Assembly (NCBI GenBank): GCA_934246625.1
Contig: CAKQHZ010000002.1
Location: 60,001-92,000 of the forward strand
Length of the DNA: 32,000 nucleotides
Source: an uncultured Alphaproteobacteria bacterium
Lineage (GTDB): Bacteria; Pseudomonadota; Alphaproteobacteria; Rs-D84; CACZYB01
Reading direction: 5' to 3'
Below are positions 8,895 to 30,860 of the stretch, piece after piece. How positions within the stretch are numbered: the first letter of the stretch is position 1; each line of letters starts with the position of its first letter. Made by a program: the position numbers and the translations under genes. The notes beneath the pieces were generated by a model. The model had not been told where the DNA came from. It saw only the letters and a program-made list of their open reading frames with translations, and ran no database searches.

Positions 8895-10940
8895 TTACTT
8901 CAAACCGCACATACAATTCCTAAATTTAATAGCAGACCTCTTCAACTCTGTAATAGTTGATATTGGGTCAGCCAACTCTGTCCCATCATTTGATGCCCAA
9001 CCAACATACTTTTTCCATTCAGGCAAAGAGGAAGTATCACAATTATTCGGATTTGAAGACATATTTGAAATTATAGTAATAAACTTTTCCGCAACATCTA
9101 ACTCTATTGCCACATTATCAACATACTTAATATTCGGAATACTTGGACATTCCTTTGTAACAGAAGTTGTCGCAACAGAGGACTTTCCTGTGGTTGAAAC
9201 GCCACTACTACTTTTTCTTCCACTACTTGCACCACCACTAGCACAAGCACACTTTTTAATTTGACTCATAACCCCGACAATATCACTTTCACTAGGACAA
9301 GCCCTTCCATTACCAATCTTCTTACACTCATCATAGGCTTTAAACAAACTTATCAACCTTTGCTTTTCATTATTTGTGCAATTTGGTAAAGTATGAGTTT
9401 CCAAAAATGTATCCCACTTTTTCCTTGTTTCATATTTGATGTTAAGGTCTGGCACATCGGCACAATCACCACCACTGCCACCATTACCACCACAAAAAGA
9501 AGCACAATTATTGTATAAATACAATGACGCACCATTTGCATATTGACTTCCAAACTGTGTAAATGATTGTCCGAACACAGAATTGATTCGTCCCAAGGTC
9601 AAAGAAATTTTGTAATCAAAACGACCGGAAGATTCGCCAATACAGAAGAACTCATTACCACCACTGGTAAAACGTTCATACCAATTTCGTGTGCCGAGAT
9701 TCCCACTTGCACAATTTGGGAAAAATACCTTACAAATTCCACCTTTTGTTAAGCTAAAGTTTTGTGATGGCAAAGCACTTGAACAATTTGAAGCCCCACT
9801 TACACCAACAGACGGAGAAGAATAAGGTGATGATGAAGATGGCATTTTCAAATCGGTCAAAGAAACATTATCATCATTATCATTGACCGTAACATTACTT
9901 TTTCCAACGGCTGTCATATCACCAGTTCCAAGCCCCAAATTCAACCCAACGAAATTTGAAAGTTTTGTTTTCACACATTCGCTACTTGTATTGCCTTGTT
10001 CATACCCATACTTACAAACCAATCGGCATTCAGGAGCCCCATCTTCCACAAATTGCCATCTTTCACCACCAACTGGCAAAGGGGAATTAAGGCAGTCCAC
10101 ACTTCTGAACCAATAATTAACAATCTTGTTTGCGGTTGCACGGCCAAGCTCCTCCGCCTGAGCCCTCGCCCTTACATAAGCCAAATTTTCACGATTATCA
10201 AGGTCATAATCATTGACCTTTGTCAAAGAATAATCCTCCTCGCCACAGGCAAGTTCAGCCATTTCCATATATCCAGCCAAAACGCCATCAACAACCTGAC
10301 GCCAATTTTCACGTTTTTTTGTATTTTGCCCAGTCAACAACATATCCATCTGGGCCCCGATATTTGAATCGCCATAATCACCCGCCTTATAAAAACGGTC
10401 CACCATATTTTCATCACGGCTTTGATTATACCCACAAAGAGTTGTCAACTTTGAACGCAAAGAGGCATCAATACTTCCATCAGACGCAATCATTTCCGCC
10501 CAACACTTTTTTGCGGATTCAAGGGCAAGTGAGGCACTTTGACATTCCTTTGTTGACTTTTTCAACGCGGTTTCAATTTTATCCTTTCCCGCAAGCAAAG
10601 AAACAATATAATTATAGGTATAAGCCTTACACCCAGTATTCAAATTCAATTCCTTTATCACGGCACGTGTATCCAAACAATCTTCGACATTAAGTTGTAT
10701 AGTCGAAGCTGACACACTTCCACATTTTGAATACACCCCCTTTTCCAAAGTTTTTTTATCAAAACAATAACGATTAAAACAATAATCAATATTTTCACGA
10801 CATTCTGTTTCAGAAGGGTCCTTTAACTTCACAGAAGAAGTTGTATTTAACGAAGTCCTTTTTTTTGAAGATGTTCTTGCCGCCATAAGGTTCAAAGAGG
10901 CACAAGTCAAACCAATAACAAACACGAAAAATTTTTTCAT
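8895..10940 (-). CDS. large exported cysteine-rich protein D (681 aa), unknown family
   Basis: Signal peptide MKKFFVFVIGLTCASLNLMA|ARTSSKKRTS, then a basic Ser/Thr-rich linker and C-x6-C (ECRENIDYC). I count 31 Cys (30 after the signal peptide). An internal G/S-rich patch is present (CGGNGGSGGDC). No enzymatic or beta-barrel motif recognised. Confidence 0.88.
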   Translation of the reverse strand: MKKFFVFVIGLTCASLNLMAARTSSKKRTSLNTTSSVKLKDPSETECRENIDYCFNRYCFDKKTLEKGVYSKCGSVSASTIQLNVEDCLDTRAVIKELNLNTGCKAYTYNYIVSLLAGKDKIETALKKSTKECQSASLALESAKKCWAEMIASDGSIDASLRSKLTTLCGYNQSRDENMVDRFYKAGDYGDSNIGAQMDMLLTGQNTKKRENWRQVVDGVLAGYMEMAELACGEEDYSLTKVNDYDLDNRENLAYVRARAQAEELGRATANKIVNYWFRSVDCLNSPLPVGGERWQFVEDGAPECRLVCKYGYEQGNTSSECVKTKLSNFVGLNLGLGTGDMTAVGKSNVTVNDNDDNVSLTDLKMPSSSSPYSSPSVGVSGASNCSSALPSQNFSLTKGGICKVFFPNCASGNLGTRNWYERFTSGGNEFFCIGESSGRFDYKISLTLGRINSVFGQSFTQFGSQYANGASLYLYNNCASFCGGNGGSGGDCADVPDLNIKYETRKKWDTFLETHTLPNCTNNEKQRLISLFKAYDECKKIGNGRACPSESDIVGVMSQIKKCACASGGASSGRKSSSGVSTTGKSSVATTSVTKECPSIPNIKYVDNVAIELDVAEKFITIISNMSSNPNNCDTSSLPEWKKYVGWASNDGTELADPISTITELKRSAIKFRNCMCGLK

Positions 10941-11059: not shown

Positions 11060-11500
11060 ATGAAAATTTTAACTGGAACATTATGTGCGTTTTTATTATG
11101 TGGTTGTATCACCCGCGAATACAAATCTGGTATTCCAATACGACAAAGTCAAATAACACAAATAAAAAATGCCACAAGCAAAAAGGACATTTACGAAATT
11201 TTGGGTTCTCCTGCATCAATAAATTTTGTTGGCAATGAAAAATGGTTTTATTACACAGCCGAAGGGGACATATTTGCATTTTTGGATCCAATGTTTTCAA
11301 AATATGAAATACTTTCAATTCAATTTAATGCAAACGATGAAATTGAAAAAATCAAATTAACAAATATAAGTAATAAAAAAATACAGATTAACGAGGATAA
11401 AAAAACACAGCTTCCATCTGCAATCGAATTAAATTTCTTTCAGGAATTATTTGGAAACATTGGAAAATTTAATTCATCTGGTGTTCCAACATCAAATTAA
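11060..11500 (+). CDS. bamE: outer membrane protein assembly factor BamE (SmpA/OmlA lipoprotein)
   Basis: Lipobox LLCGC, then ..KKDIYEILGSPASINFVGNEKWFYY.. and the C-terminal ..FFQELFGNIGKF.. seen in alphaproteobacterial BamE. SD aaggagg lies upstream. Confidence 0.7.
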   Translation: MKILTGTLCAFLLCGCITREYKSGIPIRQSQITQIKNATSKKDIYEILGSPASINFVGNEKWFYYTAEGDIFAFLDPMFSKYEILSIQFNANDEIEKIKLTNISNKKIQINEDKKTQLPSAIELNFFQELFGNIGKFNSSGVPTSN

Positions 11501-11525
11501 AAGGGACAAAATCAATAAATAAAAA

Positions 11526-11558
11526 GGGTGCCGTTTTAAAATTGCACCCCATTTTTCT
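11526..11558. terminator. bidirectional Rho-independent terminator (bamE on + and paralog A on -)
   Basis: Stem gggtgc (11526-11531) pairs with gcaccc (11545-11550). A T-run lies 3' on the plus strand and an A5 run 5' (T5 on the minus strand). Confidence 0.7.
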
Positions 11559-11572
11559 TATTTGAAAAAGTT

Positions 11573-14500
11573 TTAGAATCGATAGATTGACACATCACCA
11601 GGTCCACCACCCCAACCGTAATTCTCACCTACATCACCACAACCACCTCTTCGAATATCATTTGTTCCATGTCTAGAGCCACTTTTTGAACAATCTGAAG
11701 ATTTTTTACCTTCAACATAGTCTAGGTCAGTAGCATTATCACCATTATGACATGACCAATGCATGAACTTTGCTCTAGTATAACTACCTTCAGCACCATT
11801 ACCACCTTCTGATACAATAGAAACTAATTCTGGTATACTAAAACTTGATGAGCCACCTTTACCACCATCACCTGCATCTTTACCTGCCTTAGCTGAACTA
11901 CCACCTTTACCACCAGCACCTACTGTATAGGTAAAGGCTGTATCATTGACAACAATAAATGTTTCATATTTATATTGTCCCCAACCACCATCACCACCAG
12001 ATGTTTGACAACCGAACACACTACCGCCACCGCCACCGCCGGCACCTTGAACAACAACTTTATACACACCTGCGGACAATGTGCCACTTCCGCCTTCCAT
12101 TTTAACCTTTTGTGAATCGGTGTGTTCAAAGCTAAATTCACGAATTTTTGTCTGTATATTCTTCATTGCATTTGATTTATCGAAATCTGGCAAATCAACA
12201 CATGTAAGTTCAGGATATTCCGCATTTGATAATGCATCATAGTTTGCATCACCTGTAATTCCATACGCACTGTTTGGTTTTACATAAACATTACCTGAAG
12301 AATTTGCCTTTACCGTTAATAATTTAAGGGCATTTACAAAATCAAAACCACTAATTGAACTTGAATGATTAACAAAATAATCTGTCATTTGTGAACCAAT
12401 TTCGGAACATTTGTTAAGCACACTGGTTCCATTTGTTTCCATAACTGCACTTTTCATTTTTTCCACATTTGCAAGATATTGTTTATCCTGTTGTGTTTTT
12501 GTGGTATTGGCTTCCATTTCATAATTTGCCTTGTCAATCGCAGTTTGAACCTTTTGTTGTGCTAACTCTGCCTTTGCAGTAATAGTGTTAATTGTTCGGG
12601 TTGCATCATCTTTTTTCAATGCGTTTGCAACATCGGAAATGGTTGTAATATCTTTAACTTTATTTTTAATAATCACAGCCAAAGCATCTTCAAGATAATT
12701 TTTGATTTGTGTATCAAATTTTGCATAGCTTGTATCACGCACAGAAATCAAGTTTGCTTCATACATATCACATGATTTTTTTGCACTCATAAAATCAAGT
12801 TCGGCATAATCGGTATTTGTGTTATATGTTCCATCAGAAGATGGTTCCACATCTGATTTTGGCCAAAAACCTGACAAATAATATCTTTCCAAATCTGCCT
12901 TGTATGTAGCTTTACATGAAGCAAGTAAGGTTTTGTTTTTATTAAATTCACGATAGGTTTGGGCGACAGTTGAACTAACACCGCTTAATGACTTTGTCTT
13001 TCCATCAAAACAATAATTTGAAGCTCTGTTAAACAAAGCACTTGGGAATACCAATCCAGCCCCAAGAGGTGGCACTACGTTAATAGAAAACAAAGAACTA
13101 TCTCTGTTGATACCTAAATCGGTATAAATACTTCTTGCATCTTTTTCCTCTTCTTGTTGAGAGGCAACAAAGCAAGCCTGTGAATTACCACAAGTTGAAT
13201 TTCCCTGACATTTACGGATAAGTTCATTCCATGTTGAACCCGCAGGACATCTTGCACACTTTTTTTGCAAGCTATCATAAGTATCATTGTCTAATGGACA
13301 AGCCTGTGAAGAAGAACTTGTCGTTGAAACAAACTCCGCCGTTGACACATTTGCATCAAAATATTTTTTGTTTTCTGAATCATAAAGTTGGCATGCACCG
13401 ACAGAAGCATTATATTTATATCCATCACTACACTTTGTTGATGTGTTAAGCAAAGATGATATATCAAAAGTTTTAAGTGTTTCCAAACCTAAACCTTCGA
13501 TTCGTTGTTTATAAAGTTCAGAATTTGTGAAATTAACCATCTTAAGTTCACCAGAATCAAGTCGTTTCAATGCCTCCTTATAATATTCCGCAGAAGATGT
13601 TGTTCCAAACACATTTGCAATTTCGGCACGAACCTTTGCATCACCTGTTAAACCATCGGTGTTTGTATCTTCTGATGAAAGGACACAATAATTTGTTTTA
13701 ACACCAATAGCACTTTTAAGTGTGGTATTTCGTAAATCACAATAATAATTATATGCAAAATACAAATCGTTCACATCACGTGCGGAACAATTACTATTTA
13801 CAAAATCTTGATATTCCGAAGAAGTTGCTTGCAAATCTCCTGAATCTTTATAGGTATTTACCAAGACCTTTTCTTTACATAATTTTTGATATGTTTTCCA
13901 ATTATTATCAAAAGTTTTGTTTGCGGATAAAAACGCATTCAAAGTTTTATATTTTTCACAAGTTGCGCAAATTCCTGTTTTTGCCTTTGTATTTAGTGTC
14001 AATGTTGCATCACCAGATTCGGAACAAGTCGCACTTGTCAAATAACTTGAAAATTGGTTGTTTATATATGAATTAATATTGTCCTGAGCAATATTAAAAC
14101 TTGCCAAAGTTGATTCGTTTAACACAGAACGACAACTTGAAACCACCTGCATATTTTGTGGTAATTGGGAATTTGACCTATCATAAAACAAACATCTGAA
14201 AGGTTCCTGTGTATCAAGATAAGCCTGAACCGCTTCATCATCATAAAGATATGTGTATTTATCAATAACATCGTTGATTTGAGAATCCATACATGACACA
14301 AATGCTTCACGACATTTTTGTTCTTCCACCTTTTGAGAAGATGCACTTTCAGAAAGATTTTTACCTATCTTTGATGCCAATGATGATGTTGTTGCGGCAC
14401 GTCTTGTATTTAATCTTGTTTTTGCATTACCACCAGTTGCGGCACGCTTTCTTGAACCTGCTCTTGCAGTTTTTTTAGAAGATGATTTTTTTGCACCAGT

Positions 14501-14635
14501 ATTTGCCTTTCGCACAGATTTTTTTGTTGTTTTTTTAACTTGTGAAAAAGCAATATCAACATATGAAGTAAATGAAATCATTACTGCAATAAAATAAACA
14601 AGAATATGCTTTAACATTTTTTTAATCATTTTCAT
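11573..14635 (-). CDS. large exported cysteine-rich protein, tandem paralog A (1020 aa) with C-terminal glycine-rich domain; function unknown
   Basis: Signal peptide (..FIAVMISFTSYVDIAFS|QVKK), a ~75-aa Lys/Arg/Ser/Ala/Thr linker, and a motif scaffold shared with B and C (CREAFVSCMDSQI, PFRCLFYD, LYFAYNYYCD, LFSINVVPPLGAG, LERYYLSG, SAKKSCDMYE, CVDLPDF). I count 28 Cys. The start ATG overlaps the stop of B (ATGA). Confidence 0.92.
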   Translation of the reverse strand: MKMIKKMLKHILVYFIAVMISFTSYVDIAFSQVKKTTKKSVRKANTGAKKSSSKKTARAGSRKRAATGGNAKTRLNTRRAATTSSLASKIGKNLSESASSQKVEEQKCREAFVSCMDSQINDVIDKYTYLYDDEAVQAYLDTQEPFRCLFYDRSNSQLPQNMQVVSSCRSVLNESTLASFNIAQDNINSYINNQFSSYLTSATCSESGDATLTLNTKAKTGICATCEKYKTLNAFLSANKTFDNNWKTYQKLCKEKVLVNTYKDSGDLQATSSEYQDFVNSNCSARDVNDLYFAYNYYCDLRNTTLKSAIGVKTNYCVLSSEDTNTDGLTGDAKVRAEIANVFGTTSSAEYYKEALKRLDSGELKMVNFTNSELYKQRIEGLGLETLKTFDISSLLNTSTKCSDGYKYNASVGACQLYDSENKKYFDANVSTAEFVSTTSSSSQACPLDNDTYDSLQKKCARCPAGSTWNELIRKCQGNSTCGNSQACFVASQQEEEKDARSIYTDLGINRDSSLFSINVVPPLGAGLVFPSALFNRASNYCFDGKTKSLSGVSSTVAQTYREFNKNKTLLASCKATYKADLERYYLSGFWPKSDVEPSSDGTYNTNTDYAELDFMSAKKSCDMYEANLISVRDTSYAKFDTQIKNYLEDALAVIIKNKVKDITTISDVANALKKDDATRTINTITAKAELAQQKVQTAIDKANYEMEANTTKTQQDKQYLANVEKMKSAVMETNGTSVLNKCSEIGSQMTDYFVNHSSSISGFDFVNALKLLTVKANSSGNVYVKPNSAYGITGDANYDALSNAEYPELTCVDLPDFDKSNAMKNIQTKIREFSFEHTDSQKVKMEGGSGTLSAGVYKVVVQGAGGGGGGSVFGCQTSGGDGGWGQYKYETFIVVNDTAFTYTVGAGGKGGSSAKAGKDAGDGGKGGSSSFSIPELVSIVSEGGNGAEGSYTRAKFMHWSCHNGDNATDLDYVEGKKSSDCSKSGSRHGTNDIRRGGCGDVGENYGWGGGPGDVSIYRF

Positions 14636-16644
14636 TTCCCTTCATTTTCATTTTCTTTTGACACACTTTTATCTGGGAAAGTTTCTTCTAAATGCTTTTT
14701 AACTTGATCCTTTACAGTAGCCCCATAACTTGTTTCCAAATTACCAGGTAAATTAGAAAGGAATGCTAACTTATAACTAAATGTTGGAATATCAACACAA
14801 TAAATTTGATAATATCCAGCAGTCTTACCCTTATCCGCACTTCCATTTGAAATTGCAATATATTTATCATAATTGGAATCTGATGAAGGGATAACATCAC
14901 CTTCACGGTTAATTTTAACTGACTTTGCCTTTAGATTACCAATCCAATTCCAAAATTGAGATTTAACTTCATCTTTTGAAAAGCAAGAAGCTCCACTACT
15001 TCCACAATCAGTATTATAACTATTCAAAATCATAGTAGAACACTTTGTCAATGCTGGTGTAGCATAAGTAGAAGCGAAAGTTGATGCCAATTCCTTTTGT
15101 GAAGATGCCTTTTGCACAGCAACATTTGACAATGTCAAATTATATTCAGATTCGGCCAATGCAGCATCACCCTCAGCCTTTAATTTAGCCATTGCCATTT
15201 CACTTTCAACCTTTGAACGTTCATTTGTAATTTGGTTATCTAACTTTTTCAAATTTGTTTCAGCAGCAGCAAGTGAAGCAGTAGACTTCATCTTCTTTTT
15301 TACCATTTTTGCAAGATTATCTTCAATCCAATTTTGCATTTGGTTATCAAATTCACCATACTTTTTATCACGTGTAGAAATCAAAGCCTGTTCATATAAA
15401 CCACAACTTTCCTTTGCAGAAAAGAAAGCGGATGTAATATCTTCGGTTGTTCCACCTTCTATTTGATTACCATTGTCATCAACCTTTACACCTTCCCATT
15501 TTCCAGACAAATAATATCTTTGAAGGTTATCTTTTAAAGATATACAATTATTTGAATTAAATTGAGCAATTTGTTTATTTCGCGTGCGAATTGCTTCCTT
15601 TTGTGCAGTTGTTCCAACAACTTCAGAAGCCTCCGTCTTTAAACAATTATTTGAAGCTGTATTAAATTGAGCACTTGCCAAATAAGCATTTGCCCCAATC
15701 GGTGGCACAACATTAATAGAAAATAATTCCGTTTCATCCTCTAAATTTAATTGATTAAAAATTTCTGAACCAATTTTACCGTTAATAACATAAGAATCTT
15801 CATTTTCCAAATCAAGTTGGTTAATAAAATTTTTATAAATAGTAGAACTTTCAAGGTTAATCATTTGAAGTCCATCATTACTCATACGTTTCAAAACTTC
15901 ATTATAATAAGCAACACTATACTTTGTTGCAAAATTTGAACCTGCAGACAAATCGCATTGATTTATCTTTCTTCCAATATTGTTTTTTAATTTACGTTGA
16001 ATATCACAAAAATAATTATATGAATTATAAAGTTCATTCACACCACGTTGAGTATAACAACTTTCTTCTGTGATACCAATACAAGTTTTTTTATCATCAT
16101 TTAAAGCAGACGTATTTGATTTTAAAACATTTGAATTTGGGTCATAAAATACACATCTGAAAGGTTGACCAGTTTCAAGTGCAAGCTCCACAGATTCATC
16201 ATCACTTAAAAAAGAATACTTTGAAAGAGTGCTTGAAATTTGATTATCCATACAATCCACATAAAGATTGATACAAGTTTGTTCTGATGCAGTTGTATTA
16301 TCATTTAACTGATTCATAAATGATAAACTTTTACCAATAGTTGTTCTTACAGTTGCGGCACGTCTTGAATTTCTTCTGGAATTTCTAGTTGTTGCGGCAC
16401 GCCTACTATTTTTTCCAGACAAAGTTCTTTTCTTTGATGTTGCCTGTCTTTTTACACCAGCAGAAGATTTTCTTACACCTGAAGATGAGTTTGATTTCTT
16501 TCTGGCGCCACCTGCTTTTCTTACTGTTTTCTTTGCCACCTTTCTAGGTGCAGCACCCACAGGCAAAGAAACTGAAAGCACAGTAATTCCAGAATATAAA
16601 AATACCAACAATGGTATCATAAATTTTTTTAATACTAACTTCAT
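14632..16644 (-). CDS. large exported cysteine-rich protein, tandem paralog B (~670 aa), shortest member; function unknown
   Basis: Signal peptide MKLVLKKFMIPLLVFLYSGITVLSVSLPVGA|APRK, a basic linker with RRAAT repeats, and the same motif scaffold (CINLYVDCMDNQI, PFRCVFYD, LYNSYNYFCD, ELFSINVVPPIGA, LQRYYLSG, SAKESCGLYE, IYCVDIPTF). I count 14 Cys. The start is ATG 16644 or upstream TTG 16656. Confidence 0.9.
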   Translation of the reverse strand: MKLVLKKFMIPLLVFLYSGITVLSVSLPVGAAPRKVAKKTVRKAGGARKKSNSSSGVRKSSAGVKRQATSKKRTLSGKNSRRAATTRNSRRNSRRAATVRTTIGKSLSFMNQLNDNTTASEQTCINLYVDCMDNQISSTLSKYSFLSDDESVELALETGQPFRCVFYDPNSNVLKSNTSALNDDKKTCIGITEESCYTQRGVNELYNSYNYFCDIQRKLKNNIGRKINQCDLSAGSNFATKYSVAYYNEVLKRMSNDGLQMINLESSTIYKNFINQLDLENEDSYVINGKIGSEIFNQLNLEDETELFSINVVPPIGANAYLASAQFNTASNNCLKTEASEVVGTTAQKEAIRTRNKQIAQFNSNNCISLKDNLQRYYLSGKWEGVKVDDNGNQIEGGTTEDITSAFFSAKESCGLYEQALISTRDKKYGEFDNQMQNWIEDNLAKMVKKKMKSTASLAAAETNLKKLDNQITNERSKVESEMAMAKLKAEGDAALAESEYNLTLSNVAVQKASSQKELASTFASTYATPALTKCSTMILNSYNTDCGSSGASCFSKDEVKSQFWNWIGNLKAKSVKINREGDVIPSSDSNYDKYIAISNGSADKGKTAGYYQIYCVDIPTFSYKLAFLSNLPGNLETSYGATVKDQVKKHLEETFPDKSVSKENENEGK

Positions 16645-16712
16645 CTTTCCGTCCAACTATCCATATATTAAAGATATAACAGAAATTACCAAAAGTCAAT
16701 AAGTTATCAACA

Positions 16713-16740
16713 TAAAAAAAGAAGGGTCAAAGCCCTTCTC
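16713..16740 (-). terminator. Rho-independent terminator between paralog C and paralog B
   Basis: On the minus strand, agaaggg pairs with cccttct (16720-16726 / 16733-16739) and is followed by a T7 run (plus-strand A7 at 16714-16720). A TTGACT -35-like hexamer (16699-16694, minus) lies just downstream. Confidence 0.75.
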
Positions 16741-16750
16741 TTAAAATAAA

Positions 16751-19405
16751 TTATTTTTCTTTTCCTTCTTCCTCTTTATTTTCATCCGTCTTTGTGGAAT
16801 TAAGTATATCATCAGCACCAAGGACAACAGCTGTCACATTTTGGTCAAATAATTCCTTACCACGACCCATATAATGACCTTTTAACGCAGGAAGTTCAAT
16901 TGTTTTACTACTTGATTCTTTTACAAGACCTAAGAACTTTTCTGTTTTTGTTCGTTGTGTAACAACACACTTTCCATTTTCAATTCTTTGGTTATCATAT
17001 GAAACTTTTTTACTACCACCAAACATAGAAGAAATGAATCCTATAGCAGCTGGTATTCCACCAAGGACATTACCTCCTGCAATAATAGAAAGCCCAGCCA
17101 AAGCAAAACTACTTTTTACTCTTTCTATTGCAGTATTTGTTTCACTACCATTTGGTTTACCAGCAACACTAACATTTGATTTTTCATTTTCTTCATCGGC
17201 TTGTTTTTGTAAATCTTCCAAAACCTTTATCAATAATTCATTTTTACCAGTGCAAGAATATTCAAGCATACCATCATAAAGAATACTCATTGCATATCTT
17301 GATGGTTCCATAATTGATGTTTTAAAGTATGGAGCATCAACACAATAAATTTCAGTATATCCATCTGGCAAAGCAGAAGATGTTGTGGTTGTATTGCCAT
17401 TTGCGTCCATTGTTGTAACAGTCGCATCTTTTACATCGCCATCACGATTGATATAAATACTTTGAATATTCAAAAGGTTTGAAAGTTCTTCTAACTTCTT
17501 TGGTGATTTAAGGTTCATAAAGAAGTTATCCATACCTTGAATACATTCGGCATAATTTTCACCACAAACTGCACGCATAGAACTCATAACTTTAGGAGTG
17601 CAATAATTTGCAATTTGTCTTGGATATGTATCTGTGTAAAGTTTTGCACGTTCTTTACGTTGAGCGATAAGACTTTTATCAACTTCAAGTTTTTTCATAT
17701 CAAGATTAAGGTTTGCATTAAGAATTGCAATTTCCGCCTCTGATTTTGCATTTGCAATTTCCGCACGCATATTTGCAAGGTTAATTGAAATATCTGCATC
17801 TGCTTGTTGTAAAGATTGGAAAGAAGATGCAATAGTTTTAAGATCTTTTGTCTTTTTCTTAACAAGTTTTGCAACCTCATCCTCAATATAGTTTTTAAGA
17901 TAAGTATCAAAATTTGCATATTGAGTATTACGCACAGAAATCATAGTATTTTCATACATATCACATGATTTTTTTGCACTTAAGAAATCTGATTGAACAA
18001 GAAACATTTGGTCATAAGTCAATTCGTCTTCTGTTGTAATTTCTGTTTTTGGAGCAAGGTTATAAAGTGAAGTTTTATCTTCATCAATACCCTTTTCCTC
18101 TGCTTCTTTAGCTATCTTTGATTCAATAGTTCTGTTTTCACCATTAAAACTACATTTATTTGTTTTTTGGTTATATTCATAAGAAGCTGGACAATAAACC
18201 TTTGCAGTTCCAGCAAGGTAATATCTTTCCAAATCGCTACGAACTTCGGCTTCACCACAATTTGTAAGTATAGAAATATCTGACTTTATAGTTTTTTCAT
18301 CTTCAGTCAAAGTTTTTCCAGCAGGTTTAAACACCTGTGCACCAAAGCAAATATCACTTGCCTTTTGGAAAATACCACTTGCATTTAAACTTCCTGCGCC
18401 AACAGGTGGCACAACATTGATAGAAAATAATTCACTATCAGAAGATGCCAATCCCAAATCTTCCATCAAATCGGAAACTGAATTTGTTTCTGAGCATGTG
18501 CAACCAGCACTTCCTTCTTGACAAGATTTGTTATCACTATCAACACAAGTCTTACTTGTCAAACTCATCATATCCCAATTTTCAAGGTCAAGTTTTGAAA
18601 TTTTATTTTTAAAAAGATTTGTTTGTTCAAAGTTAATAATTTTAAGTTCACCCGCTTGAACACGTCTATTTGCTTCGGCATAGTAAGCAGCAGAATCCTT
18701 TGTCGCAAACACATTATTTTTGCTTTTACCACCATTTGAATATTGTTTTATATTACATTTATTTACTGGCATACCAGCCACACCAACTTCTGATGTATCC
18801 AAATCACAATAATAATTATATGACATATAAAGTTCATTTATATCCTTTTGATTTGAACAAAAGTTATAATTATTAAAGGCATTTTCCTTACCAATTTTAT
18901 TTAATGACAAATCAACCTTTCCACTTGTTGAATTGATAAGGTTATCATTTCTTTTTGACATTTGTTCTTCTGAACAATATTTAGAAGTTGTTGCATCACC
19001 AAACAAATTATCAACATTACTTGAATTATAATAAATACAACGCAATGGGTCATTTGTTTCTTGCATAGCTTGAACACCTTGGTCATCAGCCAAATAGCTA
19101 TAAGATGCAATTATATTATTGATTTGCAAATCCATACATTCTGTATATGCGGAACGACAATCCTTTTTTGCTGAACCACTTGAAGTTGTTCCAGTCGCAA
19201 TAACACCACGACCAGCAGTTCTTCCTGCTTGACGTTTGTTTCCAACACTTCTCACAGACTTTTTAGAAGAGCCACCTCTTGATGCTTGACGTTTTGTTGA
19301 TTTTTTACCAGATGATTTTGAAGTTTTTCTCGCCGCAAATGCAGGCAAAGTAAATTCACCAATAAAAGTAAATAAACTAAGGAAAACTATAAAATTTTTA
19401 AACAT
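16751..19405 (-). CDS. large exported cysteine-rich protein, tandem paralog C (~884 aa) with C-terminal glycine-zipper hydrophobic segment; function unknown
   Basis: SD GGGAGA lies 7 nt before ATG 19405 (the track's TTG 19420 is probably too early). Signal peptide MFKNFIVFLSLFTFIGEFTLPAFA|ARKTSK, a basic linker, and the scaffold motifs (CRSAYTECMDLQI, PLRCIYYN, LYMSYNYYCD, ELFSINVVPPVGA, LERYYLAG, SAKKSCDMYE, IYCVDAPYF). I count 22 Cys. Confidence 0.92.
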   Translation of the reverse strand: MFKNFIVFLSLFTFIGEFTLPAFAARKTSKSSGKKSTKRQASRGGSSKKSVRSVGNKRQAGRTAGRGVIATGTTSSGSAKKDCRSAYTECMDLQINNIIASYSYLADDQGVQAMQETNDPLRCIYYNSSNVDNLFGDATTSKYCSEEQMSKRNDNLINSTSGKVDLSLNKIGKENAFNNYNFCSNQKDINELYMSYNYYCDLDTSEVGVAGMPVNKCNIKQYSNGGKSKNNVFATKDSAAYYAEANRRVQAGELKIINFEQTNLFKNKISKLDLENWDMMSLTSKTCVDSDNKSCQEGSAGCTCSETNSVSDLMEDLGLASSDSELFSINVVPPVGAGSLNASGIFQKASDICFGAQVFKPAGKTLTEDEKTIKSDISILTNCGEAEVRSDLERYYLAGTAKVYCPASYEYNQKTNKCSFNGENRTIESKIAKEAEEKGIDEDKTSLYNLAPKTEITTEDELTYDQMFLVQSDFLSAKKSCDMYENTMISVRNTQYANFDTYLKNYIEDEVAKLVKKKTKDLKTIASSFQSLQQADADISINLANMRAEIANAKSEAEIAILNANLNLDMKKLEVDKSLIAQRKERAKLYTDTYPRQIANYCTPKVMSSMRAVCGENYAECIQGMDNFFMNLKSPKKLEELSNLLNIQSIYINRDGDVKDATVTTMDANGNTTTTSSALPDGYTEIYCVDAPYFKTSIMEPSRYAMSILYDGMLEYSCTGKNELLIKVLEDLQKQADEENEKSNVSVAGKPNGSETNTAIERVKSSFALAGLSIIAGGNVLGGIPAAIGFISSMFGGSKKVSYDNQRIENGKCVVTQRTKTEKFLGLVKESSSKTIELPALKGHYMGRGKELFDQNVTAVVLGADDILNSTKTDENKEEEGKEK

Positions 19406-19552
19406 ATATCCATCTCCCAATTTTCACATAAAATTCTAATATATATTTTTTCTCTTAATTATATTACAATCATTCGAAACAAAAGTAAATAATTTTATTG
19501 ATTTTTCTCATATTTTTTTGTAAAAGATATATGTCAAAATGAAAGGGAGAAA

Positions 19553-21268
19553 ATGAATATATTTATGATTCTTATTATGGCTGTTATGCTAGGAATGTAT
19601 CAATACTTTACTGCAAAAAAGTCATCTGAAGTAACATTAAATAAAGAAGAACGAGCTTTCGAAGTTGAACTTAACTGTCTTAAACAATTTCATGATTATG
19701 GAGCATCACGAAACGAAGCACAACTTACATCTGGTCCAATAAATCCAAATTATACCTGTGCTGGACACGAAAATATAAAAATGTATAAATATTGCCTTAA
19801 TAATAACGTTGAAACACCTTGTTCTGAAACATCAATCACAGAACATTGCGTTGCAACCACTATGGCAAAGGAAAAATTGGATAATTCATTAAAAGCACTC
19901 CTTTTTCAAAAGGGTATTGATGAAATAAAGGCTGGAAATCTAATAAAAGGAAAAAAAATATCAGCACAAAATCACCCTGTATCAACAGTTGCCTCAACAT
20001 CTTTTGGACTTACAACCTGTGTTCCTGCTGAACGTATTTCACAAAATGAAAAACTTGCAAAGGATAATTGTGCAAAGGAAGGTAAATTTGCCACACTTAA
20101 AGCTGATGGTTCTTTTGAATGCACCGATGTGCCAGAAGTTTCCGAATGCACCGCACACGAAGATTCTGTTGTAAATATATCTGGTCGTCAAAATTGCACT
20201 GGTCCTATAAATGGTAAATATTGTTGTGCAAAAATCAATCTTGAAAAAACTGTTTGTGGAAGCGATCCAAACATCAAAGCAACATGGAACGCAAATACTC
20301 GTTTTTATAATTGCACAACTGGTGAAGAAACCTGTAATGTAAAAGATAATGTTATGGACGTTGTTGATGAAAACAATACAAAGAAAGACGAAATAATAAT
20401 CAAAAAAGATTCAACCGATAAATTTTATATTGCAAAATATAATACAACAAAAAAGGCATGGGATTGTATTCCAAATTCACGATTACTTATCGACCTTTGT
20501 AAATCAAAAACATTGGAAAACGAACTTGCATACGTTTCTGTTTCCGACCTTTCTGTTTCAAATGGAAAGCCTGTATGTAAAGGAGCATCAAGCAAAGCGC
20601 CAAGTGCTGTTGAAACTTGTTCTGCTTGTGGTATTCCAACACTTAACAAATCAACAAACCAATGGTATTGCAAATACCCAAATTGGAACACCGAATTAAA
20701 AAATAATCCAACCGCAATGAACAATTACATAAACACCGTCTACAAAGCATCTGGTATAAATAATAAGGGTATTGAAGCCTGCTTTAGAGGCTGTTCTGCA
20801 GATATGATAAACAAATTAAGACAAGGTGTTGTAAATGGACTTTTATGGGGATTAACCTGGAATAACAACTCAAAGCTATTTGAATGCTTTAAATGTGGAG
20901 ATTATTCAAATGAAAATGGTTCTTCTTTCTATAATGGTGCATATATAAACAACCTATGTAAAAATGGAAACTTTTCATCAACTCCAGCATCCGTTTGCAT
21001 AGATAATAAGTATTCCGATGCTACTTGCACAAATTCTGAAATCAACGGAAGATGTGTTATAAAATGTTGTAATGACTTATATCAAAAACGTGGAACAGAT
21101 GGTAAATGTTATACAAAATGGTGCCGAAAAATTCCTGCTGAAATAAATGCAGTTATCAACAAACCACAAGAAAAAGTATGTCCAAAAACACACCCTCGTT
21201 CTATATATAATTCAGTTCAGGATTGTGTATATTGCATAAAAACACCACCTGTATCAACAGATAAATAA
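19553..21268 (+). CDS. exported or membrane-anchored cysteine-rich protein E (571 aa), unknown family
   Basis: SD agggag lies before the ATG. The N-terminus is uncharged and hydrophobic (MNIFMILIMAVMLGMYQYF), a signal sequence or signal anchor. I count 36 Cys (about 6% of residues) spread over the whole length, including CC, CxxC and CxC pairs. It is transcribed divergently from paralog C. Confidence 0.88.
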   Translation: MNIFMILIMAVMLGMYQYFTAKKSSEVTLNKEERAFEVELNCLKQFHDYGASRNEAQLTSGPINPNYTCAGHENIKMYKYCLNNNVETPCSETSITEHCVATTMAKEKLDNSLKALLFQKGIDEIKAGNLIKGKKISAQNHPVSTVASTSFGLTTCVPAERISQNEKLAKDNCAKEGKFATLKADGSFECTDVPEVSECTAHEDSVVNISGRQNCTGPINGKYCCAKINLEKTVCGSDPNIKATWNANTRFYNCTTGEETCNVKDNVMDVVDENNTKKDEIIIKKDSTDKFYIAKYNTTKKAWDCIPNSRLLIDLCKSKTLENELAYVSVSDLSVSNGKPVCKGASSKAPSAVETCSACGIPTLNKSTNQWYCKYPNWNTELKNNPTAMNNYINTVYKASGINNKGIEACFRGCSADMINKLRQGVVNGLLWGLTWNNNSKLFECFKCGDYSNENGSSFYNGAYINNLCKNGNFSSTPASVCIDNKYSDATCTNSEINGRCVIKCCNDLYQKRGTDGKCYTKWCRKIPAEINAVINKPQEKVCPKTHPRSIYNSVQDCVYCIKTPPVSTDK

Positions 21269-24251: not shown

Positions 24252-25085
24252 TTAAAATAAATCAGAAATAAAATCATACTTTAACTTGAACATAACCATA
24301 TCTTGTTTATAATCAAGTGATGTAGCAGAATCATCTTTTTCCTTCGCAGTATCCACTTTCAATTTTTTATATTCTAAACCAACGATAAGAGGACTTTCTG
24401 GAACACGATATTCAACACCAACAATAAGTTGTTTTGTTGTTTCATTATCCTTTGAACCACCAGTAATGCCAAATTGTGTTGATTTAATTTTTGAAAAACC
24501 ATAACCATAACCAATATATGGGTCAATATTACCAAGCCCAGGAATTTCAAACAAAACATTTATCATTGTGCTTGTTACATCATTATCTCTTACTTCATTT
24601 GCCTCATATACTAAATCAAAGTTATAAACATTTGAAGGAACCTTTGAACCAGTGCAAGAATTATTATTACACCATTCACCATCTGAACCTGGGAAAACTT
24701 GCATCAAAGCTGATTTTGCTTTAAAAGAAGTTTTTAAATATTCAAGTTCAAATCTGAACGGATTTTTTGGAATTGCCCAACCAACAGCCAATGAATATGT
24801 TTTAGTATCTTCTGTGCCATAAGTCCATTTTTCAGGAAGTCCAGCCTCCCACTGTTTTGCCCAAAGACCATCAGGGGTAGAATTTTCACCACCTGGCCAA
24901 CCATTCAAAACATTAAATCCTGGATAAACACCATTTACTCCTGTATCAGAAGAACTTCCTGACAATGTAGACATAGAAAAGTCAGGGTCAGAATTTGCAA
25001 ATCCTCCACTTACATAAAGTCCCGCCGCATTAGCATTATAAGAGCCAAGCAAAAGCAAAGAACTTAAAATCAAAACCTTTTTCAT
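24252..25085 (-). CDS. outer-membrane beta-barrel protein (OMP_b-brl / Omp25-like class)
   Basis: Signal peptide ..GSYNANA|AGLYVSGGF, alternating amphipathic strands, and a C-terminal beta-signal ..MVMFKLKYDFISDLF ending in Phe. One loop Cys pair (WCNNNSC). Confidence 0.8.
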   Translation of the reverse strand: MKKVLILSSLLLLGSYNANAAGLYVSGGFANSDPDFSMSTLSGSSSDTGVNGVYPGFNVLNGWPGGENSTPDGLWAKQWEAGLPEKWTYGTEDTKTYSLAVGWAIPKNPFRFELEYLKTSFKAKSALMQVFPGSDGEWCNNNSCTGSKVPSNVYNFDLVYEANEVRDNDVTSTMINVLFEIPGLGNIDPYIGYGYGFSKIKSTQFGITGGSKDNETTKQLIVGVEYRVPESPLIVGLEYKKLKVDTAKEKDDSATSLDYKQDMVMFKLKYDFISDLF

Positions 25086-28202: not shown

Positions 28203-29570
28203 ATGACAATAAAAATTTTAAAAAATATAGGACTTGTGATAACCACAATTTTTGTGGATTTTTCTGCATACGCACAAACAACAAATATGCAACTTCCTCA
28301 ACAAGTCGGGGTTTACAATCCAAACATAAGAACCCAACAAATGCAACTTCCACAACAGGTTGGTGTTTATGCCCCACAATCACAACAAAATCAAAGGATT
28401 CCTCAACAACAAGGATACAGATATAATGCACCTGTTGTAAATTATAATAAGGCTCCTGTAATCAATAATAACCTATACGAAAATGTAAATGGATATAAAA
28501 CTCCAAATCGTTATACCCTTTCACAACCTGAAGTCATAAAAACTGCATATAATAACAAACAAAAAACATCTGAAGATTATGGCCCAGAATACTATATGGT
28601 ATTAAATTATGGAAAGGCTTTCTTTGATGGAAAGGGATTAACAGGAAGTGTTACTGTATCAAGCCCATTTGACACAGTTTATAATTTTCCATTAAACAAT
28701 ATCGGTAATTCATTAGGGGACGCAAACGACCTTTCAATCGGTTTTGGTGTTATGTCAAACCGAAATTTCAAAGCTGAAATCACTTATAACAGCCTATCAG
28801 GTTTAAAATACGGTGATTATGCAACTGCGACAAACCAATGGTGTTCTGATGAATTTGCTGACGATGGAAGTTTTTATTATGATTGTTCAAAACAATTATC
28901 TGTTGATGGTGGAAAAATAAGCTCTTTTGGTTTCAACCTTAATATGTATTTTACAATAGAAGATTTTATTGGTGGTAAAATCCTTGATGGACTTATTACT
29001 CCATATATCGGTGGTGGTATAGGTATTGCTTTCAATACCATTGATAACTACACAACCTATGATGAAATAGGTAATGGTGAAGCGCCTTTAAACTCATCTG
29101 GTGAACCATATATAAGCAAATCAACTGGTGCTGCTTACACAGCAGAAGAATGTTTAACTGCAACTGATTGTGTCGATAATTTTGGATATTATGATTACGA
29201 TGGCACAATTACCCACTATGGGGCAACATCAAACAATGTAAGTTGGAATATCGAAGCTGGCTTATCATTCGCACTTGATTCAAAAACATTGATTGATGTA
29301 TATTATAAACACAATTACTATGGAAAGGTAAAATCCAAAAACGAAGTATATTCTTCATACAACTCTGTTGATATTTTGGATCCAGTTGATGATAGCAGTG
29401 GCGGAAAAACTTGCACAGAAAATGCTCTTAAGGCAGAATATCTATATAACGAATCAACAGGTTGGTGTGAAAGTGAACCATATTCAACTGAAGCAACAGT
29501 CTACAACGCTGGTGAAAGTGGAACAATTGAAAACAATACAATGGGAGTAAAACTTAGACTTATATTCTAA
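28203..29570 (+). CDS. outer-membrane beta-barrel protein with Q-rich N-terminal repeat, tandem paralog 1
   Basis: Signal peptide ..FVDFSAYA|QTT, a Gln/Pro-rich region with an 18-aa tandem repeat, amphipathic strands, and C-terminal NNTMGVKLRLIF. Three loop Cys pairs. SD aggagagg. Confidence 0.82.
   Translation: MTIKILKNIGLVITTIFVDFSAYAQTTNMQLPQQVGVYNPNIRTQQMQLPQQVGVYAPQSQQNQRIPQQQGYRYNAPVVNYNKAPVINNNLYENVNGYKTPNRYTLSQPEVIKTAYNNKQKTSEDYGPEYYMVLNYGKAFFDGKGLTGSVTVSSPFDTVYNFPLNNIGNSLGDANDLSIGFGVMSNRNFKAEITYNSLSGLKYGDYATATNQWCSDEFADDGSFYYDCSKQLSVDGGKISSFGFNLNMYFTIEDFIGGKILDGLITPYIGGGIGIAFNTIDNYTTYDEIGNGEAPLNSSGEPYISKSTGAAYTAEECLTATDCVDNFGYYDYDGTITHYGATSNNVSWNIEAGLSFALDSKTLIDVYYKHNYYGKVKSKNEVYSSYNSVDILDPVDDSSGGKTCTENALKAEYLYNESTGWCESEPYSTEATVYNAGESGTIENNTMGVKLRLIF
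28287..28370 (+). repeat. in-frame tandem repeat, period 54 nt (MQLPQQVGVY core duplicated)
   Basis: atgcaacttcctcaacaagtcggggtttac (28287-28316) versus atgcaacttccacaacaggttggtgtttat (28341-28370). There are 5 differences and all are synonymous third positions. Confidence 0.9.
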
Positions 29571-29582
29571 GGGAATAAAAAT

Positions 29583-30860
29583 ATGAAAAAACTTTATACA
29601 AACATATTCTATTCAATAACTGCAATTCTTGGATTCGCAAGCACTCCTGCATTATCTCAAACAACTCAAAATGCAAAACCTGTAACAATGAGATATGTTG
29701 GCAACCAACAATACATAGGTCAACAACAACAAATTATTCCTCAACAAAAACAAGTTGCACCAACAATAAATTCTGTATATGCAAAACCAATGCATCGTGT
29801 AAATGAAATTCCATTATACGGTAAAAATAAAAGTATGTATTTTTATAACCAACCTAAAAACGAAGACGGCAAATTTTCTGGCATTGGATTATATTTATTC
29901 GGTTCATTTTCAACTGGTAAAACAACAAAGGGTGTAAATGCCGAAGATTATAACAGCAACTTTTCATATTCAATAGGAAGTGATGGCAACAAAGATATGG
30001 GCGATGCAACTGGCCTTACTTTTGGTTTTGGTCGTTCTATGTCATCAAACTTAAACATCGAATTGATGTATTCAAAATACTCTGGTATGAAATACGGAAA
30101 TGCAATAAAAAACAAAATGCTTACTGATGGCACTAACGACTTTTATCCATCAGACGCAAATGATAATTGCTATGATGAAGAAGGAAATTATCTTTGTTAT
30201 GATAAAACTACCGACAGCTATAAAATAACAAGCGGTGGTGATATAAATTCAGATTTCTTTGGTATTGGTTTTCAATATAAATTTGATGGCTTAACTGGTG
30301 GACTTTTTGGTATGTTAAAACCATACATAGGAGTCCAAGTCGGTTTCGCAATGAATACCCTTGACGATTTCAATGTTTCCGACCCTGATGGTTATAGCGA
30401 GGGTGATGAAATGTATACTTATGCAGAGGATGATGAAAACCAAGAAAATCCTACAGGTCCAAATGAAAATTGCACAGAAGCATCTAAATGTACAATAAAT
30501 GATTATACAGATGGTGATATAACATTTATTGGCGAAACAAATAAAACTTTTGGTTATGGACTTGAACTTGGTTTCACAATCGCACTTGAAAACAATATGG
30601 AAATTGATGTATTTTTCAAACGAAATATGTTTGGAAAGGTAAAAACTTCTGGAAATGCTTTAGCATCATATTATCAAACTGATACATATTTCTATGCTAA
30701 TAATGGAACTTGTTCTAATGGTTTCAGTGAAGATTCAACAGGTTTTGTATGCTTCGCTGAAGCAGATATTGGAACAAAAGATTCACAAGCAACCAATGCA
30801 GTTGAATCAGGTGATTTATATATGAATCAACTTGGAATAAAATTAAAATATATGTTTTAA
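29583..30860 (+). CDS. outer-membrane beta-barrel protein with Q-rich N-terminus, tandem paralog 2
   Basis: Signal peptide ..GFASTPALS|QTT, a Q-rich stretch (GNQQYIGQQQQIIPQQKQ), blocks shared with paralog 1 (SGMKYG, KPYIGVQVGFAMNT, FGKVKTSGN), and C-terminal NQLGIKLKYMF. Three loop Cys pairs. Confidence 0.82.
   Translation: MKKLYTNIFYSITAILGFASTPALSQTTQNAKPVTMRYVGNQQYIGQQQQIIPQQKQVAPTINSVYAKPMHRVNEIPLYGKNKSMYFYNQPKNEDGKFSGIGLYLFGSFSTGKTTKGVNAEDYNSNFSYSIGSDGNKDMGDATGLTFGFGRSMSSNLNIELMYSKYSGMKYGNAIKNKMLTDGTNDFYPSDANDNCYDEEGNYLCYDKTTDSYKITSGGDINSDFFGIGFQYKFDGLTGGLFGMLKPYIGVQVGFAMNTLDDFNVSDPDGYSEGDEMYTYAEDDENQENPTGPNENCTEASKCTINDYTDGDITFIGETNKTFGYGLELGFTIALENNMEIDVFFKRNMFGKVKTSGNALASYYQTDTYFYANNGTCSNGFSEDSTGFVCFAEADIGTKDSQATNAVESGDLYMNQLGIKLKYMF

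Follow-up and report, generated by a model that had tools for sequence, protein, structure and literature searches.

The locus and its three paralogs

The 32,000-nucleotide (nt) stretch analyzed here (the window; positions 60,001 to 92,000 of contig CAKQHZ010000002.1, assembly GCA_934246625.1, from an uncultured alphaproteobacterium) carries on its reverse strand three paralogous genes, here termed A, B, and C, the first of which codes for a protein ending in a glycine-rich domain that varies strongly between strains. Gene A (11573..14635, reverse strand; stop codon at 11573-11575) encodes an exported, cysteine-rich protein of 1,020 aa with 28 cysteines, 24 in its scaffold and 4 in the glycine-rich domain. 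The scaffold, which extends up to about residue 845 of A, is common to all three proteins at 33-36% identity. In paralog B (14632..16656, reverse strand; 674 aa) it occurs without a C-terminal module, and in paralog C (16751..19420, reverse strand; 889 aa) it is followed by a C-terminal extension of another kind, with a hydrophobic Gly/Ala/Ile segment, FALAGLSIIAGGNVLGGIPAAIGFISSMFGG. No Pfam match above the cut-off was obtained for the scaffolds of A, B, and C, nor did the scaffold match any NCBIfam model, and a scaffold profile run against the sequences of the PDB found no relative. The start codon of A overlaps the stop codon of B in an ATGA at 14632-14635, which suggests translational coupling of the two genes. 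A terminator-like hairpin lies between C and B at 16717..16742. Another, recognized by eye and counted as weak evidence, stands 3' of the stop codon of A on the same strand (11521..11549) and consists of GGGTGC, a 12-nt loop, and GCACCC, followed by TTTTTATTT; it is absent from the list made by the hairpin scan because its loop is longer than 8 nt.

Protein A begins with a Sec-type signal peptide that can be read off the sequence (residues 1-31, MKMIKKMLKHILVYFIAVMISFTSYVDIAFS with Q as the first residue after the cleavage site; 14543..14635, reverse strand), residues 3-30 of which form a helix in the AlphaFold2 (AF2) model of the full-length protein. It is followed by a basic, low-complexity region rich in K, R, S, T, and A with a pI of 12 (residues 32-100; 14336..14542, reverse strand), which is predicted to be disordered and is common to all three paralogs. 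Ahead of the position of the C-terminal modules, the full-length model has a long predicted α helix (residues 618-756; 12368..12784, reverse strand) that might be a stalk or an oligomerization element. This model is weak, with a mean predicted local distance difference test score (pLDDT) of 59.5, a predicted template modeling score (pTM) of 0.32, and a pLDDT of about 72-87 over residues 700-800 and lower values before them, and it was used for secondary-structure hints alone.

The glycine-rich domain occupies residues 846-1020 of A (11576..12100, reverse strand), and the C-terminal sequence quoted for it in the initial annotation is the exact translation of these positions. The last 175 residues of A are 25.7% glycine, compared with 3.9% for residues 1-845; the corresponding C-terminal values are 5.7% in B and 10.9% in C. 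The first glycine-rich strand, GAGGGGGG, is encoded at 12021..12046 (reverse strand) by ctaccgccaccgccaccgccggcacc, which had been described as the cluster's one strongly GC-rich patch and is indeed the sole 26-nt window with at least 18 G+C between 11573 and 19420 (the maximum being 21 of 26). The higher GC content of the domain is due to its glycine codons. That only one of the three paralogs in the window carries the domain likewise holds, as a hidden Markov model (HMM) of the domain built from this lineage and run against all window open reading frames (ORFs) of at least 100 aa matched A alone.

The C-terminal domain belongs to the phage-type glycine-rich family PF21722

Profile searches placed the domain in Pfam family PF21722 (Gly_rich_2). 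The match scored 39.3 bits (E = 9e-10) with the domain alone and 32.9 bits with the whole protein, above the gathering cut-off of 24.3 bits, and 23 of 26 domains from the same lineage also match this family. It was the sole glycine-rich-domain family returned by a Pfam search at E ≤ 1; an NCBIfam search with the domain gave no match, and the PHROG families “minor tail protein” and “tail fiber assembly” gave weak ones. As a single sequence the domain retrieved nothing relevant among the PDB sequences. A profile built from 33 domain sequences and run against all PDB sequences found the “Tail wing brush” protein gp33 of mycobacteriophage Bxb1 (9D93, chain Q; E = 2.6e-8), with the fiber of cyanophage Pam3 as a marginal match. 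Relatives are easily missed by faster methods: an exhaustive HMMER protein search with the domain returned 25 proteins versus 2 with a word-indexed search. A literature search on PF21722 found nothing.

A domain with 26% glycine raises the concern that the Pfam match is compositional and that the segment is a disordered glycine-rich linker or an RTX-type calcium-binding β-roll, and the large HMMER bias term in the profile match to the PDB sequences points the same way. Nevertheless, none of 10 composition-matched shuffles of the domain had any Pfam match at E ≤ 10, which indicates that the match to PF21722 is not due to glycine content alone. An AF2 model of the domain, based on the alignment of the 33 domain sequences, is confident (pLDDT 80.6, pTM 0.79), with nine ordered β strands and a single low-confidence stretch (pLDDT < 50) at domain residues 130-158, and all alleles have the same hydrophobic strand motifs. 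Moreover, the GG.G.D nonapeptide of RTX repeats is absent from the domain, and HemolysinCabind was not matched. We therefore rejected the linker and β-roll explanations, to which we give almost no credence.

The invariant framework comprises about nine predicted strands and six glycine-rich strands arranged as three hairpins (GAGGGGGG and GGDGGWG, GAGGKGG and GDGGKGG, GGNGAEG and GWGGGPG). The sequence has one short GGCGD stretch besides these six main motifs. The secondary-structure program DSSP assigns the glycine segments of the model to neither helix nor strand, which is compatible with, and not diagnostic of, a polyproline-II (PPII) conformation. A Foldseek search of the PDB with the model retrieved, as its best 25 matches, exclusively the Bxb1 tail tip, TNF-like/glycine-rich domains of ALK and LTK, and the Pam3 fiber, with probabilities of 0.63-1.0. 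Against the viral structure database BFVD it gave 179 matches at E ≤ 1e-3, mostly phage “glycine-rich domain-containing” proteins and mycobacteriophage “minor tail” proteins. The predicted fold is thus a β-sandwich with glycine-rich hairpins of the class of the solved TNF-like/polyglycine-II structures. The β-helix or β-solenoid that the initial annotation had envisaged appears neither in the model nor among its structural matches. Its central proposal, that the C terminus of A is a glycine-rich domain of the phage tail-fiber type, is borne out by the HMM search, the profile match to the PDB, the predicted fold, and the distant phage relatives described below, and we regard the assignment of residues 846-1020 to PF21722 and the brush domains as solid.

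Comparison with structurally characterized brush domains

Polyglycine-II “brush” domains, known at the receptor-binding tips of phages and in the cytokine receptors ALK/LTK, are a rare and recently recognized fold, described as a TNF-like β-sandwich with loops that form a bundle of polyglycine-II/PPII strands. The brush domains of Bxb1 gp33, the Pam3 fiber, gp38 of phage S16, and ALK/LTK have been classed together as glycine-rich PPII/polyglycine bundles (PMC13243192, PMC13243795). Bxb1 gp33 is both the best profile match and the best fold match of the domain in A (E = 1.3e-4, probability 1.0), and the two have the same order of motifs: a strand, a glycine run, a strand, VGAGG, an SSF strand, GG.GG, and a final G.V.I strand. 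Unlike in gp33, the domain in A lies at the C terminus of a 1,020-aa chromosomally encoded bacterial protein with a signal peptide rather than in a virion protein, and its third loop is long, cysteine containing, and lineage specific. It is also shorter, with the profile match spanning positions 17-149 of 226, and has six glycine-rich strands; as judged from the sequence, it would be a reduced version of the brush fold.

The Pam3 fiber protein gp24 (7YPX/7YFW) shows a fold match at E = 6e-3 and a weak profile match, with marginal sequence similarity. Its architecture, a helical shaft leading to a distal β-sandwich and glycine-rich head, is like that of A, as far as the helix of A can be taken from the predicted model. 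The conserved glycine-rich stem of gp24 bears a hypervariable distal tip that has been proposed to recognize the receptor (PMC9608196). The Pam3 protein has 12 glycine-rich motifs in a four-layer lattice and is a trimer that requires the chaperone gp25. The TG ectodomains of ALK/LTK (7LIR, 7NX1, 7LRZ, 7N00) match with Foldseek probabilities of 0.98-1.0 and TM-scores of 0.34-0.41, and are alike in fold, with a β-sandwich interleaved with polyglycine strands that in ALK/LTK is used for ligand binding. They differ in being part of a eukaryotic receptor kinase and in having 14 PPII helices. The gp38 adhesins of phages T2 and S16 (6F45) resemble the domain in having invariant glycine-rich motifs that frame hypervariable segments (PMC9608196), but gp38 is a three-layer polyglycine-II sandwich on a β-helix and not a TNF-like sandwich. 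Moreover, 6F45 was found neither among the Foldseek matches listed nor among the PDB sequence matches, and the likeness to gp38 is one of mechanism by analogy, not a demonstrated family membership.

A hypervariable island confined to the domain

Comparison of conspecific strains revealed that variation in this region is concentrated in the glycine-rich domain. The contig L008, which comes from a near-identical strain, can be aligned with the window across 10.99 kb and is 98.5% identical to it there. In the 10.4 kb outside the domain, the two differ nearly everywhere at 0-5 positions per 200 nt, and the sole exception is a small hot spot with 16 differences per 200 nt in the C-terminal extension of C (17163-16964). 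Across the domain, successive 200-nt intervals have 11, 35, and 31 differences. When five further strains were added, mean pairwise differences amounted to 10-44 per 100 nt at 12100-11609 and to 1-3 per 100 nt on both sides of it, including the 3' intergenic region and the gene for a BamE protein. The island is therefore sharply bounded and about 500 bp long, while the remaining 10 kb or so of the conspecific strains are about 99% identical. A look-up by exact sequence returned no record of protein A itself, but at 90% identity it belongs to a cluster of 60 members; among 15 full-length conspecific alleles, 58 of 841 scaffold columns (7%) are variable versus 84 of 180 domain columns (47%; Fisher's P = 7e-35), and the mean column entropy is 0.035 bit in the scaffold versus 0.585 bit in the domain.

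Within the domain, the variation falls into three hypervariable segments (HVS1 to HVS3), each with six to eight types among the 15 alleles. HVS1 (domain residues 26-37; 11990..12025, reverse strand; seven types) is the tip between GAGGGGGG and GG.GGWG, in the layout GVYKVVVQGAGGGGGG, HVS1, GG.GGWGQYKYETFIVVNDT.FTY. HVS2 (domain residues 58-82; 11855..11929, reverse strand; eight types) lies around and between VGAGGKGG and GDGGKGG, in the layout VG.GG.GG, HVS2, G.GG.GGSSSF.I..LVSI.S.GGNG..G. The long HVS3 (domain residues 101-163; 11612..11800, reverse strand), between GGNG.EG and GWGGGPG and followed by GWGGGPGDVSIYRF, has insertions and deletions of up to 8 aa and contains 2-4 of the domain cysteines. 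As the variable segments are located between paired glycine-rich strands, they fall at the position of the tips in the Pam3/gp38 architecture. The number of cysteines in the domain is even in every allele (2, 4, or 6), as expected of disulfide pairs outside the cytoplasm.

The segment types occur in several combinations. Thus, one allele (P0079) has HVS1, HVS2, and the first part of HVS3 (HVS3a) as in the window, with a different second part (HVS3b), and type b of HVS3b is joined to three different upstream types, which places an inferred recombination breakpoint inside HVS3. The case for mosaicism rests on these shared types in different combinations; a strict four-gamete configuration of segment types was not found among the 15 alleles. 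Individual alleles are stably inherited, given that one exact allele (P0069) occurs on 24 or more contigs.

The target of a diversity-generating retroelement (DGR), or of another form of targeted hypermutation, would likewise be expected to be a sharply delimited, variable stretch of some 0.5 kb that codes for the C terminus of a presumed binding protein. However, we found no template repeat within the 32-kb window, where the best nonself blastn match was 19 nt long (E = 0.17), and no reverse transcriptase was recognized among the window ORFs. The differences involve all substitution types, with no adenine bias, and include codon insertions and deletions as well as divergence at synonymous sites, and identical alleles recur across many samples. 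Targeted hypermutation is accordingly a highly improbable source of the island, and within the limits of the window a DGR target is excluded.

Selection and age of the alleles

We computed the rates of nonsynonymous (dN) and synonymous (dS) substitution by the Nei-Gojobori method. Between the window and the near-identical strain, the whole domain in the boundaries of the initial annotation has a dN of 0.162, a dS of 0.122, and a dN/dS of 1.33, versus 0.0043, 0.033, and 0.13, respectively, for the scaffold. A second comparison gave a dN/dS of 1.09 for the whole domain versus 0.26 for the scaffold. Averaged over the 21 pairs of seven DNA alleles, dN/dS amounts to 1.16 for the variable segments, 0.22 for the domain framework, and 0.21 for the scaffold. 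The scaffold of A is under purifying selection (dN/dS of 0.13-0.3). Synonymous divergence is likewise concentrated in the domain: dS in the island (11609..12100) exceeds that of its flanks 4-10 fold, and does so even at framework codons for invariant amino acids. This indicates that the domain alleles are either far older than the genome around them or have been brought in by recombination.

This pattern is consistent with long-lived alleles that homologous recombination maintains and reshuffles. In the gp38 adhesins, the hypervariable segments are said to be exchanged by recombination, and the T-even versions reportedly show the same pattern of long-lived alleles reshuffled between conserved glycine motifs. 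Such a pattern could also arise if the domain were exposed and its variation served escape, the domain being an immunodominant cap or a phage receptor that evades host antibodies or phages while its own function is structural or invariant. Localized high dN/dS, old alleles with raised dS, and mosaic segments are equally expected for antigenic variation. On the other side, all solved relatives are proposed to bind through their loop tips (PMC9608196), and the module recurs in the lineage on several secreted scaffolds that are unrelated to one another (see below), a better fit to a portable binding head than to a passive cap. Escape is the main rival to ligand specificity and, in our estimate, a distinctly less likely explanation of the variation, although the two are mutually compatible and escape is consistent with the same anatomy.

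Genomic context and origin of the module

The genes around A code for a signal peptidase (lepB), RNase III (rnc), a XerC/D-type recombinase, dCMP deaminase, RlmE, GltX, BamE, and an outer membrane protein (OMP) β-barrel, and their order is conserved in related metagenome-assembled genomes (MAGs). The BamE and OMP β-barrel genes point to a diderm cell. A prophage location of A was considered and rejected, as the flanking genes have housekeeping and envelope functions, with no phage genes among them. A role as a virion component, i.e., a tail fiber or receptor-binding protein encoded in a tail module, was likewise rejected given these neighbors and the synteny kept in the related MAGs. Relatives of the scaffold are confined to MAGs titled Alphaproteobacteria, Rickettsiales, or “bacterium.”

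In related species, the orthologs of A, with scaffolds 50-61% identical, all end in a domain rich in glycine at the same junction, and these domains are so divergent that precomputed Pfam annotation often misses them. Proteins of the same alphaproteobacterial lineage, and not phage proteins, account for all of the domain's closest relatives. The lineage also has small secreted proteins in which CxxC-type cysteine-rich repeats precede the same glycine-rich domain (L002 15949..16650, reverse strand; P0004, P0006, P0010, P0016, and P0018), a second architecture that uses the module in this lineage. Distant PF21722 proteins (P0040 and P0056) are encoded in siphophage tail modules, between genes for a collagen-like fiber and an endolysin. 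The expectation of phage or prophage proteins as best matches thus holds for distant relatives and fails for the closest ones. At L010 (8001..8690) and L012 (8001..8723), distant PF21722 proteins of 229-240 aa are encoded in siphophage or prophage tail modules, directly after the collagen-like fiber gene; an Amidase_2 gene is present in both, tape-measure and Dit genes lie upstream in the former, and an integrase gene is found in the latter.

Paralog C differs between species in its C-terminal module. Its ortholog ends in a Gly_rich_2 domain at two loci (L001, 6993..9440; L004, ORF from about 7165), and it has the hydrophobic extension in place of that domain in the window and at a third locus (L002). 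On this basis, the paralogs swap C-terminal modules.

The initial annotation had viewed the domain as an acquired binding or effector module. Its restriction to one of three window paralogs, the predominantly viral membership of the family, and the differences in C-terminal modules between paralogs and between species would all be accommodated by a recent horizontal acquisition from a phage, possibly of an effector or toxin. This is contradicted by the presence of the domain at the same junction in every A ortholog despite scaffolds only 50-61% identical, as well as by its occurrence on the C orthologs, by nearest relatives in the same bacterial lineage rather than in phages, and by housekeeping flanking genes; the rise in GC, in turn, is explained by glycine codons. 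Nothing supports an enzymatic effector role, with neither a catalytic motif nor a match to a toxin family in Pfam or NCBIfam. We consider recent acquisition of an effector or toxin improbable. The glycine-rich module is portable within the lineage, is ultimately shared with phages, and is old in A.

The window is rich in genes for envelope proteins. A BamE-domain lipoprotein gene (11060..11500, forward strand) converges on the 3' end of gene A, and its position is kept in all of the strain contigs (L016-L020). Two large cysteine-rich proteins without Pfam or NCBIfam matches (8895..10940, reverse strand, and 19553..21268, forward strand) flank the paralog cluster; their N termini resemble signal peptides or membrane anchors, their positions are kept at four other loci (L001, L002, L008, and L016), and they may belong to the same envelope system as A, B, and C. 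Farther away lie a separate OMP β-barrel protein gene (24252..25085, reverse strand) and a pair of tandem paralogs (28203..29570 and 29583..30860, forward strand) with glutamine-rich N-terminal repeats and OMP-like C-terminal ends, of which the first, the one tested, has no Pfam match.

Proposed function and implications

Taken together, these observations make it likely that residues 846-1020 form the distal ligand-binding head of an envelope fiber that is built and evolves like a phage receptor-binding tip. The extracytoplasmic hallmarks of A are plain: a signal peptide, 28 cysteines, an even number of domain cysteines in every allele, and diderm-type neighbors. We propose that A would be exported by Sec and oxidized in the envelope, where it would form an elongated and possibly oligomeric fiber by means of its long helix and present the C-terminal domain distally. 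There, as in Pam3 gp24 and S16 gp38, a rigid β-sandwich and glycine-rich stem would hold up three loop tips as the ligand-binding surface, for which a surface glycan or protein of a host or microbe is the candidate ligand. The loop tips would be the target of diversifying or balancing selection, and the invariant stretches coding for the glycine motifs and strands would provide the homology for recombination between them, such that many old specificity alleles are kept in the population. In this scheme we infer the binding role, the surface exposure, the oligomerization through the helix, and the nature of the ligand.

Several points weigh against this proposal. There is no evident route for A across the outer membrane. 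The third variable segment is modeled at low confidence, the TM-scores to solved structures are modest (0.34-0.48, with query-normalized values of 0.29-0.48 over the best 25 matches), and there are six glycine-rich strands versus 10-14 in the solved examples. Further, because the variable segments were delimited after the variation had been seen, their dN is inflated, a bias that does not extend to the dS values or to the dN/dS of the whole domain. Finally, a dN/dS near 1 with a high dS also fits relaxed constraint combined with the import of old alleles.

The domain as such adds a new member to an already known family. What appears to be undescribed in the searchable literature is its use on a chromosomally encoded bacterial envelope protein family, the swapping of modules among paralogs, and a hypervariable island that has sharp limits, differs at the level of strains, and mirrors the receptor-binding tips of phages. 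We tentatively suggest, as one possibility that we hold with less confidence than the binding role itself, that a cellular bacterium has here an envelope-fiber family ending in a phage-type polyglycine “brush” head that is kept as old, recombining specificity alleles for strain-level recognition of a host, prey, a partner, or kin. Such fibers would constitute, in uncultured low-GC Alphaproteobacteria, a class of hypervariable adhesin that has not been described before. If so, strain-level recognition would operate on the same structural principle as in phage tail-fiber tips and ALK/LTK.

The locus offers a natural allele series that separates the framework from the variable parts of such a domain on a chromosomally encoded bacterial envelope protein. 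As a natural mutational map of the fold, with an invariant glycine stem and tolerant loop tips, it could guide the engineering of binders. For studies of a possible exchange of receptor-binding heads between phages and cells, it supplies a point of comparison from bacteria. For this uncultured alphaproteobacterial lineage, the domain is a candidate determinant of strain specificity, and the locus could be used as a strain-typing marker in metagenomes, should ligand specificity be determined by the variable segments.

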